In this document: in pieces, positions 35,269 through 40,554 of the stretch
How positions within the stretch are numbered: the first letter of the stretch is position 1
How the letters are laid out: every line of letters begins with the position of its first letter
Assembly: GCA_965215275.1 (NCBI GenBank)
Contig: OZ244044.1
Span: 640,001-704,000 of the forward strand
Length of the DNA stretch: 64,000 nt
DNA from: Thermodesulfobacteriota bacterium
Lineage (GTDB): Bacteria; Desulfobacterota_D; UBA1144; Nemesobacterales; JAJCZQ01
Reading direction: 5' to 3'
The notes under the pieces: generated by a model
What the model saw: only the letters and a program-made list of their open reading frames with translations
Told to the model about the DNA's origin: nothing
Database searches by the model: none
Made by a program: the position numbers and the translations under genes

Positions 35269-35465
35269 AAATATGCTGGATATTATAACGCTGAATTTTG
35301 AGAATTATACAGACAGCTATGCTGAATGAACAAAGACGGCGTTCTTAACAAAACTATATCTGACGGAAAGATCTCAGTTAGTTCAATACCTTTGAAAGGA
35401 CCGCTGCTAATTTTTTGGGACTTATATACTTAACTCCACAAAATTTAACACTTTATTTTTATCGT

Positions 35466-36883
35466 TCAGTTTATAATACCTGATTCTTTAAGTCTTACTA
35501 TCAATTCCTCCTGAGATCTTCTATTTCCTTTCGTAGAATTACAAGCACCACAGAGCAGTTGTAAATTATCAATGTGGTCTGACCCTCCTTTTGATTTAGG
35601 AATTATATGATCTATCGTAAAATTTCTAAAAGGAAAGGATACCTTACACCCATTACACCAACCTTCCTGTTTACCAAACAAAGTATGTTTATGTGTTGTA
35701 TAACTTGGTAATTTCTTATCACCTGAATACATCTGGGGAATATCGTCTCTTTCTGTAATTGGAAATATCCTGCCTAACTCTTTATCCATACGAAGTTTTA
35801 CTAGATCTATTGCTTTAGGTGATATATCAATCCCTATCCATCTTCTTCCCAGTTTTTCAGCAGCTATACAAGTAGTTGCACATCCACAGAAAGGATCAAG
35901 AACCAAATCACCTTCATTACTACTTGCTTTGATTATTCTTTCAAGCAGTTTTATTGGTTTCTGAGTTGGGTAACCAACATAATGCTTTCTATTTCTATAT
36001 TCCTGTTGAATGTCTACCCATATAGTAGGAGGAATTTTCCCTTTTGACTGTAACTTAATATCAGTTCCCTTCATAACTGTTGAAGCATTGGCAGGATATT
36101 TAATTCTTTCCATGCTTGATTTTGAATATGGGATCCTTACATCATCAGCATTAAATACATAATCATTAGATTTAGCATATCTTAAAATAGTGTCATGTTT
36201 TCGTGGAAAATCCTTTTTAACTGGTGATGGACTAGCGGGGTATCCCCACACAATTTCATTGCGAAAGTTCTTTCGTCCAAAGATAGAATCCATCATTAAC
36301 TTTAAGTAATGGGAAGCTGTAGGATCACAATGTAAGTAAATTGACCCAGTATCTTTCAATATACGATTCATTTCAAGCAATCTTATCGCCATCATTATCA
36401 GATAAGATTTCATAGATTTAGAATGTGATAGTTCGGCAGAATCAATTATTCTATACAATGCTTCGTTTTTATCGGCTATCTCTCCATGCGACACATTGTC
36501 AATATCCTGCAGTGTCCAGGTATCTTTAAATGCTGCCCCAGCTGCTTTACTGCCGATAGGAGCTGAATAATTGCGTTTAGAATTAAAAGGGGGATCAAGA
36601 TAGATAAGGTCTATGTAGTTATCAGGAAAACTACGAAGTATAAACAGGTTGTCTTTAATCCATACAGTACGATTCTTGACTTGACCTGCTGATAATTTTC
36701 GGGTAAGAGAATATTTCTGCTCTGCTCTGCTCTGCTCTGCTCTGCTCTGCTCTGCTCTGCTCTGCTCTGCTCTGCTCTGCTCTGCTCTGCTCTGCTCTGC
36801 TCTGCTCTGCTCTGCTCTGCTCTGCTCTGCTCTGCTCTGCTCTGCTCTGCTCTGCTCTGCTCTGCTCTGCTCTGCTCTGTCAT
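35466..36883 (-). CDS. Beta-class N6A/N4C DNA methyltransferase fused to a C-terminal HNH domain; phase-variable, currently OFF
   Basis: The frame upstream of the track start reads ...[25 protein letters not shown] (motif IV), later 'YPTQKP' and '[10 protein letters not shown]' (motif I), then [22 protein letters not shown] (HNH). True ATG at 36883 with GAGG RBS, out of frame because of the repeat. Confidence 0.9.
36716..36875 (-). repeat. Pentanucleotide SSR (GCAGA)32 just after the MTase start codon
   Basis: 32 perfect TCTGC units on the + strand, followed by TCTGT-CAT. Confidence 0.97.
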
Positions 36884-36920
36884 AATTTTCTTACCTCTGA
36901 ATTATCAGTTTTTTCAAGTA

Positions 36921-37082
36921 TTATTTTGACTTTTTGTCAGGCAACACATAACTAAATATCTTATCCGTTATAATGTTTAGCTTTTCCATTTCATGTTCTA
37001 CTTTCTTTCTATCTGATTTGGTTTCTTTTCCACTCTTATTTTCTGATTTATCAGACACAGGACCTTTCTTGTTCTTTTTCAT
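36921..37082 (-). CDS. 53-aa basic ORF translationally coupled to the transposase
   Basis: ATGA overlap with the transposase stop; [53 protein letters not shown]. Confidence 0.5.
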
Positions 37083-38002
37083 CCAACTAATCTCTTATAA
37101 GTCAGTCTTTTATTAAATGATCTGTCACACAACGAGTTAATTCTCTCCGTAGTGTGTCTCTTAACATTACCATCATTTAATCTGAAAGAAAACTCATTTA
37201 CATATCTGCCTATATGCTTTCTGTTTATTCTACCATGAAACACTCCGTCGAAACCCCTCTTTAATACTGCCCAGAAAGACTCTACACCATTCGTGCTTGC
37301 CATTCCTTTTACATATTCCTTAACGCTGTGATTAACAGAATCATGGTTATATCCTGCTACACCTCTTTTCCAGTGACTCGCATCATCCGTATAAAGTTGT
37401 GAACCACTTTCTATACTTTTATAAACTGCATTATGAACTGTAGATAAACTTGTATCTTCAACAGGCATTGCTTTAGTCTTGCCAGTTCGTTCCCTCATAC
37501 CAAGTATAACGGATTTTGTTTTTGTACTTTTTCCCTGATTATGTGGTGTTCTTTTATCTCTATGTTTGTTTTTTTCTTTACCTCCCACATAGGTCTCATC
37601 TATTTCTACTATACCTTTAAGCATTAAACTATCTTCCCCGCATGCCTCTCGTATCCTATGAAGCATAAACCACGCTGTCTTCTGCGTGACCCCTATCTCT
37701 TTTGCCATCTGAACCGATGATATACCTTTTCTTGCCGTTACAACTAAATACATTACATATATCCATTTGTGGAGTTGAACATGACTTTTACCAAATATCG
37801 TGCCACTGCGAACCGTAAAGTGCTTATAACAACCATTGCATTTATGGTAAGGTTTTCTCTTTAATCTTGTAGTATCAAAACATCCACATTCAGGACAAAA
37901 CACTCCATTCTTCCATCTTCTACTTTCCAGATATTCAATCGCTTTATCTTCATCAGAAAATTTAGACATAAGATCGTATGTGCTTATTGTGCTTTTACTC
38001 AT
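37079..38002 (-). CDS. IS1595-family DDE transposase
   Basis: Zn ribbon CPECG..CNGC, 'KTAWFMLHRIR', 'VEIDETYVGG', 'LYTDD', 'TNGVESFW', 'YVNEFSFR'. Confidence 0.95.
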   Translation of the reverse strand: MSKSTISTYDLMSKFSDEDKAIEYLESRRWKNGVFCPECGCFDTTRLKRKPYHKCNGCYKHFTVRSGTIFGKSHVQLHKWIYVMYLVVTARKGISSVQMAKEIGVTQKTAWFMLHRIREACGEDSLMLKGIVEIDETYVGGKEKNKHRDKRTPHNQGKSTKTKSVILGMRERTGKTKAMPVEDTSLSTVHNAVYKSIESGSQLYTDDASHWKRGVAGYNHDSVNHSVKEYVKGMASTNGVESFWAVLKRGFDGVFHGRINRKHIGRYVNEFSFRLNDGNVKRHTTERINSLCDRSFNKRLTYKRLVG

Positions 38003-38053
38003 TACTTTTCCTCCGTTATTATATCCATTAATATAATAATTTACCTTGTGGAG

Positions 38054-40554
38054 TCAAGTATATAAGTCCCAATTTTTTATCCGAGACCTTATCTTCCTTC
38101 TGATAACAACGGATACAGGTATAAGCATCAGAGATGCTACTGCTGTGAGCATATCAGAAGCAGCTTCGTTCTGCTCGGAGACCGCACATCCTCCTCCACC
38201 TGCATCACTACCTGATGGTGTTGGTCTTCGTGTCGGTGGTCTTGTTGTTGGTGGGTCTGTTGGTCCTGGCGGCGTGGTTGTTACCCTGATAGTGAATCTC
38301 AGCTCGTCCGTATCTCCATCTTCATCCGTTACCGTATATGTATAACTGCCGGAAGATACAGCAGTTGGTGTTCCGCTGATCACTCGGTCAGTTTCACTGA
38401 AAGTAAGTCCAGCAGGTAAAGAAAGAGGGGACAGGCTGTAGGTTAATTCTCCATTCCCTGCTGTTGCCTCAGGCAGTGTTTCCTTTATTGCAGTTCCCGG
38501 CACGTAATTCTTATCTGGTATGGTCCAGCTGTTAAACGTCGGTTTATTACCAGACATATGACCATAGACCTTAATGTTCCATGAGTGTAAGGTCCCCGCA
38601 CCTGCGACTGAAGCGTTGGTTATCTTCAAGGTCCACTCTCCGGCAGGGTCCGTTCCCAAGTGATTAGCTAAACCAAAACGATGCTCTCTGCCTGTATAGT
38701 CAAAGTCGTCTACAGTAAGAGATCTGCCAGATAATAAAAGTGATAAAGCTTCTGCTGGATATGCCTCAGTGAGTTTTGACACTCTACCGTCAGGGGAAGT
38801 TATTTCTATACTTAAAAAAGGAAAGAAAGGGTGAGTGAAATTGATACCGATCTCTATAAATTCCGTAAATACCTCAGTACCTGTTATATCGATATCAGGT
38901 ACTGTAAGTGTGAAAACAGCGGAAACATCTTTTGCATCTTCTCCCGTTGTGAATCCTGGTATAACCGTATCGATATTACCCGAGGAAACCGTCACGGGTC
39001 TCATTGGCGGTGGAACGTTGGTCCAGCTTTCGGCAAGTTCTGCTGCAGCAGCAGCGTCTACAATGCCAAAACCGAATTTTGGATTGTAACGATAATATTC
39101 TGAATCAGAACCGTATTGAAGTGCCACTCTAGTCCATTGTGTGTCGGTAAAACCTAACTGTACGTCATGACTGGTTGAACCTGCCAGTATCAGTTTCAGG
39201 TCTCGCCAGCTAAGATCACTGTTTACCTCCCGCAGCAGTGCTGCTACTCCTGAAACGACAGCAGCTGAATTTGACGTTCCAGGGAACTCAAAACTGTAAC
39301 CGTCGTTATTGTCGGTAGTTACAATACCAGAACCCGGTGCACATACCCACAGATTGAAACCCTCTTCTGAAAAGGAACTTTTAGTAACACTAGATGAAGT
39401 CTTACCGCTCTCTGCTGAACATACAGTGGTTACAGCGTAGTAGTTGGAATACTCATCAAAATTAGCCTGCTCTGCTCCTTCATGTCCGTCCCCTGCTGCC
39501 CACACGTAAAATACTCCTTTACCACCAAATCCTTCTCTTATACCCGTTCTCACTCCTTCTTCCCATTCTGATGAAGCCTCTGTAAGAACCGGCAGGTCCT
39601 TCGGTCCCCAGTTGTTGACCGATACAGCCGTTATATCCTTATTACGGACCATGGCATCCTTTGCGTTAGCATCACTGAAGTTATCAGCTAAATTATAACT
39701 GTAGATGCCTGCCTGAGGTGCTACACCTCTTACTCCAAGGCTGTTATCACCCACTGCTGCTATAATGCCAGCCACACGTGTACCACGACCACTTGAAGGA
39801 CTGTACAGATCACCGCTTCCTGAATAATCATGAGAAAGTGTGGTATCCACGTTATCAGCAAGGTCCTCATGATCTGTGTCCATACCATGATCTACCACTG
39901 CTACGTTAATCCCAGCTCCAAATATACTATCATCCCAGACCTCTTCTATGTTTATATCTATATCTTCTTCAGAGGTTTGGAATATCAGCTCGCCACTTAC
40001 TTGCACATCAACTGCTGGACGTTTCAGATACCACTGACACCCGTATAAGGGATCATTTGGAAAATTGGTAGTGATATCTGTACAGTCGCCGAGTAAGTTT
40101 TGAGAATCAGCTAATAAAACTCTGATATTGTAGGGTGTACTTCCACTGCTTCCCACAACTATATAGTACATTCCCTGTCTTAAGCGGGTTTGTAGAGTGG
40201 CCGTTGCTGCGTTACCTGACAAAGTCACTTCAGCAGTACTTGCTATCAGACCATCATTGCTGTCACATAACTGTAAGCTGTATCCCAGATCATTGGAGAA
40301 GGGGAAATTTGCCTTTATATCTACAATAAGATCTTCATTTATGTTTGTCCGAAAGTAATGCGGACCAGAACCGGCAGCTAAACTTCCACTACGTGTACTT
40401 CCGGCTACTCTCAACGTAGCTTCGGTCGTTGCACTGGAGTCACAGTTATTAACGCTGGTCTGACCATATGCACCAACGTTTACAAAGCACAGAAGAAAGA
40501 AAAAGGGAATTAATAACTTATGGGGGGGGGTATTACTCTGAATAAGATGTTCAT
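38054..40554 (-). CDS. S8 paralog 4: His-less pseudo-peptidase + P-domain + 1 Ig repeat + GGGGC-CTERM; frameshifted at poly-C (main ORF 38054-40414); stop codon interrupted by the IS
   Basis: VVDHG / GRGT / AGDG / GTS. ATG at 40554 followed by C9; C10 gives MNILFRVIPPPHKLLIPFFFLLCFVNVGAYGQ. Confidence 0.87.
40522..40530 (-). repeat. G9 (C9 coding) tract in the paralog-4 signal peptide
   Basis: Read directly. Confidence 0.9.

Follow-up and report, generated by a model that had tools for sequence, protein, structure and literature searches.

Genetic elements at the locus

The window analyzed here is a 64,000-nucleotide (nt) stretch of contig OZ244044.1 (positions 640,001 to 704,000), part of the 1.99-Mb genome of a Thermodesulfobacteriota bacterium (GenBank assembly GCA_965215275.1; here, G000). 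It holds an IS1595 insertion sequence (IS) element of 2654 bp (35417-38070) in which a gene encoding a DNA methylase fused to an HNH nuclease begins with a long pentamer repeat. Judging by its sequence, this gene likely encodes a mobile defense enzyme that is switched on and off at random. The features of the element and its insertion site, in window coordinates, are as follows.

35409..35416, no strand: AATTTTTT, left copy of the 8-bp target duplication; 43 paralogous gene ends align with the rebuilt empty site through the junction
35417..35441, plus strand: terminal inverted repeat (TIR) at the cargo end, 24/25 against the opposite end
35466..36715, minus strand: body of the beta-class amino-methyltransferase-HNH gene, assigned from Pfam, 119 homologues, and an AlphaFold model
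36689..36712, no strand: downstream arm of a 24-bp imperfect inverted repeat, 19/24 complementary
36716..36879, minus strand: perfect repeat, (GCAGA)32 or (GAGCA)32, in the 5′ coding region of the methylase-HNH gene; period 5, 32.8 copies, 100% matches
36881..36883, minus strand: ATG start of the methylase-HNH gene; a GAGG element begins 14 bases before it, and the leader is homologous in a same-genus genome (here, G001) and at G000:343378
36885..36908, no strand: upstream arm of the 24-bp imperfect inverted repeat, 19/24 complementary, holding the putative ribosome-binding site
36921..37082, minus strand: 53-amino-acid (aa) open reading frame (ORF) that overlaps the stop codon of the transposase; no matching family
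37079..38002, minus strand: IS1595-family transposase, 307 aa, with zinc ribbon and DDE domain and an intact frame (PF12762, PF12760, NF033547)
38030..38057, minus strand: promoter-like site TTGACT-16-TATATT, its -35 box within the inverted end; consensus match only
38046..38070, minus strand: TIR at the transposase end, which gives the interrupted subtilase gene its new stop codon
38054..40414, minus strand: host S8 subtilase-family gene, whose stop codon is the landing site of the element; extended by five residues (WDLYT)
38071..38078, no strand: right 8-bp target duplication AATTTTTT, identical to the left copy

Coordinates and alignment agree with the initial annotation in placing 25-bp TIRs that match at 24/25 bases and an 8-bp target duplication, AATTTTTT, that is identical (8/8) on the two sides. 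Three genes lie inside, all on the minus strand, namely, the transposase, the 53-aa ORF, and the methylase-HNH gene; ORF and Pfam/NCBIfam matches bear out this content. The transposase matches PF12762 over its full length (1-153/153), the N-terminal zinc ribbon PF12760, and NF033547 with 189.8 bits (cut-off, 75). The 53-aa ORF received no Pfam, NCBIfam, or convincing tblastn assignment (best Atlas value, 0.78). An IS1595 DDE transposase with a zinc ribbon, TIRs with an 8-bp direct repeat, and passenger genes are what distinguishes an IS1595 transporter IS, and the element has all of them. The promoter-like site could drive the three co-oriented genes, with the reservation that such sites number 9, versus 10.4 in shuffled sequences.

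The empty site was rebuilt by removing the element and one copy of the duplication and was compared with G000 by BLAST. The junction is spanned by 43 of the 64 hits, all 43 being 3′ ends of paralogous subtilase genes, which backs the insertion boundaries proposed earlier. Because the end of the element supplies a new stop five codons on, its landing in the subtilase stop codon was probably near neutral for the host. Elsewhere in the genome, a second near-identical copy of the element end (G000:C1:1762081-1762105; 1 mismatch) directly adjoins 22 bases that match the region of the 53-aa ORF, with another end-like sequence of the same orientation 500 bases off; it is probably a deletion remnant of the window element.

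A pentamer repeat between start codon and gene body

The methylase-HNH gene starts with ATG, ACAGA, and (GCAGA)32; read in another register, the tract is (GAGCA)32. The annotated start at 36883 and the repeat behind it were recovered with 100% matches, and the tract is the sole perfect 5-base repeat with at least four copies in the G000 genome. The frame containing the methylase motif DPPF is open only when the number of units, n, satisfies n mod 3 = 1, giving 470 aa at n=31 and 475 aa at n=34. The assembled allele, n=32, is out of frame (here, OFF), as had been calculated, and encodes a 90-aa peptide. The initial annotation had also pointed to a downstream start as a possible bypass. No ATG, GTG, or TTG stands in frame ahead of DPPF, where the only in-frame candidates are ATT, CTG, ATA, and ATC codons; the first canonical in-frame start, GTG at 36494, lies past DPPF and would give a 342-aa product with the HNH domain but no DPPF. 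Phase-variable simple sequence repeats (SSRs) are recognized by a long perfect tract with a unit that is not a multiple of 3, set between the start codon and the gene body with no bypass start, here upstream of DPPF. All of these are found at this locus.

Logan contigs from four sequencing runs end about 30 bases into the repeat, which three of them enter from upstream and one from downstream, and the repeat therefore exists in sequencing data. Three of the runs belong to one study and may be source data; the fourth, from another study, has a depth of about 7 and no differences and may be carry-over. The contigs do not span the tract, which leaves some room for the view that the assembly has the wrong unit count and that the OFF state is an artifact. 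We consider this view highly improbable, since the contigs of all four runs end within the repeat, since G001 has a homologous pentamer tract, and since a miscount would alter the ON/OFF state but not the existence of the gate. Length differences were seen across genomes in gated homologues only.

A single-chain methylase-nuclease and its family

The cargo protein matches PF01555 (methylase) and PF01844 (HNH) in one chain, as initially annotated. From the N terminus, it comprises the DPPF motif, a variable, presumed recognition region, the DPFCGCAT motif, and a C-terminal HNH domain of the CxxC/DH-N-N/CxxC type; DPPF ahead of the S-adenosylmethionine (SAM)-binding motif is the beta-class order. 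The methylase half has its best sequence and fold matches in M.BceJIV, M.RsrI, M.MboIIA, and CcrM, all of which stop short of the HNH tail; the AlphaFold model (pLDDT 84.4) also has EcoP15I Mod among its structural hits.

A protein search gave at least 8000 scored candidates, many of which will share the methylase half only. Conservation was read from the best 119 non-self hits, all with both Pfam domains, against a 409-aa query. DPPF, PTQKP, and DPFCGCAT are near-invariant in this set, and so are the HNH residues (D362, 100%; H363, 98%; N377, 100%; N386, 100%; four cysteines, 99-100%), whereas aa 152-240 vary. The elements at loci L003 and L008-L011, which reside in different hosts and are elsewhere 98% identical, differ across this variable middle region, a pattern that swapping of the recognition region would produce. 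In close relatives, the same methylase bears Mrr_cat in place of HNH, and the tail of one relative is GIY-YIG-like by eye only (no Pfam match at E 5e-4). Tracts of G9-G12 occur in the variable middle of the in-frame homologues L001:4439, L003:4441, and L023:1916 and are possible internal switches.

No adjacent res (ATPase-nuclease) gene was found in the element or its flanks, and none recurs among 101 neighbor ORFs. Likewise, no restriction partner recurs among the 101 of 128 neighboring ORFs that were scanned, those omitted being mostly transposases and long ORFs; P63C recurs six times. Neither Pfam nor the AlphaFold model gives a reader domain for modified bases, a role in which the methylase itself might serve. 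Because the nuclease is conserved and has neither a partner gene nor a reader domain of its own, the protein is best read, from its sequence, as a one-protein restriction-modification (R-M) enzyme.

Two other roles for the HNH domain were considered. (i) It could act as a type IV (McrA/Mrr-like) nuclease that cuts DNA methylated by other enzymes, the protein marking its own site and attacking foreign marks. The Mrr_cat tail of the relatives and a weak McrA profile match (E 4e-4) are in keeping with such a role, but the match is limited to the HNH stretch, and only about 40 mostly conserved residues separate methylase from HNH, with no separate reader domain in the model. We regard the type IV role as very unlikely. 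(ii) A guide-RNA (IscB-like) role was rejected, since the IscB and Cas9 matches are confined to the HNH stretch and fall far under the cut-off.

Mobility of the enzyme family on IS1595 elements

In species-representative genomes, 316 related loci were found, and the best 80 of them were surveyed. An IS1595 transposase hit lies at most 1.5 kb away at 31 of these 80 loci, a count that includes repeat copies within a genome. An identical element is present in four copies in one Amylibacter genome and once in the assembly of an unrelated host, where a binning error is possible. Hosts of related loci include Poribacteria and other groups that we take to be sponge symbionts. The enzyme family moves between phyla on elements of 2.5-5 kb. 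Four copies of one repeat-free element (L049-L052) occur in a single genome; some of them share their 8-base flanks with others, which suggests that rearrangement has taken place among them.

Other IS1595 elements are numerous in G000, and several of them have both 8-bp duplications and a methylase as cargo. Intact elements with 8-bp duplications and varied multigene cargo lie at G000:C1:1304051-1307389, 1516018-1519071, 1002026-1005187, and 1812584-1815955, and at least two of these four have an amino-methylase gene that begins with a tract of G9 or C9. In 80 viral loci, the HNH tail was found in seven and a transposase hit in one; none of the seven HNH-tailed loci has a 5′ repeat. On two viral contigs (L203 and L204), related methylase genes have a length-variable dinucleotide repeat, (TC)13 and (CT)21, just upstream of 2394 and 2501, respectively, and before a near-identical leader.

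Distribution of repeat gates among relatives

Among 120 genomes of the phylum, ATG-anchored and (GCAGA)6 patterns matched G000 only, and a looser pentamer pattern added only G001. There, ATG is followed by (RACAG)18, which is out of frame and hence OFF, and the leader is homologous to that in the window (0/2000 shuffles reach the score). The G001 gene is carried on a deleted IS1595 derivative, which has IS1595-like ends and retains about 100 bases of a transposase gene (score 75; shuffle maximum, 40); a perfect target duplication was not found at this locus. Its methylase core is 59% identical to the query and falls on a different branch of a FastTree phylogeny (45 selected sequences, rooted at the midpoint, no clade test), and the nearest tree neighbors of the query are without a repeat-coded N terminus. 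For these two reasons, it seems that the leader and repeat were attached to differing enzyme bodies. A decayed paralogue, G000:343378, retains the leader and a collapsed ACAGA-CCAGA seed. The ATG-plus-repeat pattern had two matches in metagenomes, neither with a methylase or transposase hit, and none in viral sequences.

Poly-C tracts are a second kind of gate. C8 or longer stands at 8 of 13 family 5′ ends in G000 and at 8 of 28 in the other genomes of the order, counts that include paralogues and kin and are not independent; for comparison, such tracts occur at 25 of 1122 starts of long ORFs and in 0.5% of windows drawn at random. Three other intact elements with 8/8 duplications bear poly-C gates (G000:1812584-1815955, one in G060, and one in G001). 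Eleven of the 12 full-length poly-C genes are OFF, each one base from a frame of 415-503 aa, and five genes of one clade have C10, C10, C11, C12, and C16. When the two pentamer genes are added, 13 of 14 gated full-length genes are OFF (binomial 0.027 versus 2/3), an excess that suggests a costly ON state. In the L082:2616 region (genome G011), a T breaks the poly-C tract (C7-T-C5), which is in frame and resembles a stabilized ON allele.

The G000 genome has about 65 poly-C/G tracts of at least 10 bases, many with shared flanks and differing lengths (C10-C13), which suggests a large set of slippage-switched paralogues; two lie in the window, at 1761-1772 and 28426-28442. Loss of mismatch repair as the cause of these many tracts was rejected, since mutS and mutL are intact.

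At the window locus, the ATG and the pentamer tract lie between the arms of the 24-bp inverted repeat, whose duplex is computed at -17.8 kcal/mol. It was noticed post hoc and is beyond chance (reached in 0/1500 shuffles and 0/1500 random genome pairs). The G001 homologue pairs weakly around its start (-11.1, versus -25.1 in the window element, in 57-base windows). In an equilibrium folding model, the ribosome-binding site is 0.34 unpaired whatever the repeat number, and an effect on translation tuned by repeat length is therefore not supported by that model. The inverted repeat may dampen translation, or it may be a template-switch scar.

The predicted pairing of this inverted repeat with the ribosome-binding site fits a different view of the gate, namely, that the repeat is a host-selected silencer of costly selfish cargo, effectively locked OFF and decaying, rather than a two-way switch. 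The 13 of 14 genes found OFF are likewise compatible with silencing, and several gated paralogues in G000 are short fragments. However, the frame of 474 codons is intact, as is every motif, and the repeat is both long and perfect. Moreover, gated genes keep full-length frames in nine genomes or more, from which expression on at least some occasions can be deduced. We therefore think a locked silencer improbable.

Comparison with known phase-variable and mobile systems

The transporter IS category has been defined for the IS1595 family (TnCentral preprint 10.1101/2021.05.26.445724). As far as the consulted part of that source goes, IS1595 transposase, short inverted ends, direct repeat, and passenger genes all correspond, and a passenger that is a repeat-gated methylase-nuclease is the point of difference. 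This definition agrees with the earlier statement that IS1595 members can carry passenger genes.

A GAGCA(n) tract switches modS, a phase-variable type III mod gene of Streptococcus suis (PMC8125046; survey, PMC5909438), as had been noted for repeats of this type. According to the excerpts of these papers available to us, the two genes share GAGCA(n) near the gene start, one ON length in three, a variable central recognition region, and the beta-class fold. Unlike in modS, the nuclease here is fused C-terminally, the element has no res gene, and the gene is IS borne; switching was demonstrated for modS, whereas here it is predicted.

The likeness to modS in repeat unit and position is one argument for a mobile phasevarion, in which the repeat-switched methylase would mainly alter host gene expression and the HNH domain would be weak or dispensable. 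The fold matches to CcrM and other solitary or regulatory beta-class methylases and the many poly-C/G tracts of the host point the same way. However, the catalytic residues of the nuclease are invariant or nearly so, and alternative nuclease tails exist, which argues for selection on cleavage. A 2025 review moreover states, in the part accessible to us, that phage resistance, not regulation, may drive such switches (PMC11868660). A phasevarion is accordingly the less favored half of the original alternative, “phasevarion or switchable R-M,” and in our judgment rather unlikely; the conserved nuclease favors the switchable R-M half.

In Campylobacter jejuni, Cj0031 is a single-gene phase-variable type IIG enzyme that switches phage restriction 5- to 1000-fold (PMC4889913). 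On the basis of the consulted text, it appears to be the best functional analogue, with one gene for methylase and nuclease under a slippage switch; the differences here are the beta-class methylase, the C-terminal HNH, the 5′ pentamer, and the transposon-borne location. Methylase and nuclease in one polypeptide, as in type IIG/IIC enzymes, are found in the window gene. In type IIG enzymes, a PD-(D/E)XK nuclease stands at the N terminus and the methylase is of the gamma class. By that definition the order differs here, being of the beta class with a C-terminal HNH. Type III mod genes share with it a beta-class amino-methylase with a variable recognition region but have an adjacent res gene, which is missing. 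By analogy, then, the gene may be likened to Cj0031 in its working, yet by these comparisons it is neither a type IIG enzyme nor a type III mod.

Furuta et al. (2010; PMC2853133) described R-M genes within inverted repeats of about 26 bp and an 8-bp duplication, in one case with a transposase-like gene. Inverted repeats and an 8-bp duplication around R-M genes are common to both cases; their enzymes are different, and no repeat gate is described in the accessible part of that paper. In the literature covered, which does not extend to most subscription journals, we found no paper on a repeat-gated methylase-HNH gene on IS1595. The parts are already known (modS, Cj0031, and transporter ISs), and their combination was found in no paper.

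Proposed function and its limits

Taking these lines together, we hold it fairly probable that the locus is an intact IS1595 transporter element whose methylase-HNH cargo, kept out of frame by the 32-unit pentamer, is a randomly switched one-protein R-M enzyme. Individual cells would change between OFF and ON by slipped-strand gain or loss of units. When the gene is ON, its variable central region would select the DNA site, and the methylase would mark host sites at N6-adenine or N4-cytosine. The HNH domain, without a reader domain of its own, would nick or cut unmarked incoming DNA near the selected site, and altered expression of host genes would be a side effect of the ON state.

Several observations weigh against this reading or its parts. 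(i) With regard to mobility, the element has a copy number of 1 in G000, and repeat-free in-frame elements reach four copies per genome, from which it follows that the enzyme is tolerated without a gate. (ii) With regard to the gate, 77 of the 80 distant homologues lack a 5′ repeat (3 of 80 have any). The ON-state protein would carry about 50 repeat-encoded residues, and the Logan contigs collapse the repeat, so that they confirm the tract but not its unit count. The excess of OFF alleles is weak, because five of the genes belong to one clade, the others are related as well, and homopolymers may be miscounted in assemblies. (iii) With regard to the enzyme, no PDB chain matches the methylase and HNH halves together, and no paper was found on this architecture, its nuclease activity being predicted from motifs only.

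The scarcity of repeats among homologues and the multicopy spread of repeat-free in-frame elements indicate that the gate is lineage specific and not a fixed part of the element. As far as sequences tell, it is a feature of certain host lineages, an add-on in a lineage that uses slippage tracts widely. On the question raised at the outset, whether the SSR travels with the element, the answer is yes in part: poly-C gates ride on three intact elements and a homologous pentamer gate on the deleted G001 derivative, but among the 120 genomes of the phylum the exact repeat is confined to G000, and most of the distant homologues have no 5′ repeat.

A broader scheme can be offered only tentatively. 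IS1595 elements may spread a modular kit of one-protein R-M enzymes with an uncharacterized architecture, made of a beta-class methylase, a swappable recognition region, and a swappable HNH, Mrr, or GIY-YIG-like tail. A transferable leader-plus-repeat cassette might be grafted onto varied enzyme bodies and keep them mostly OFF, so that these enzymes would be silent on arrival and become active in only a small share of cells, and the inverted repeat here might be a second translation brake tuned by repeat length. If the enzyme is active, it represents a single-chain R-M architecture for which we found no solved structure or paper, in a large family. Most work on phase-variable methylation has been done in pathogens; the repeat-gated versions of this family would place it on a unit that moves by itself in uncultured bacteria, and their activity bears on the question of whether such switches serve defense or gene regulation.

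Other repeats in the window

A 279-base tandem repeat of 5.4 copies (26147-27666) adjoins a subtilase-like gene in the window and probably encodes repeated Ig-like domains.

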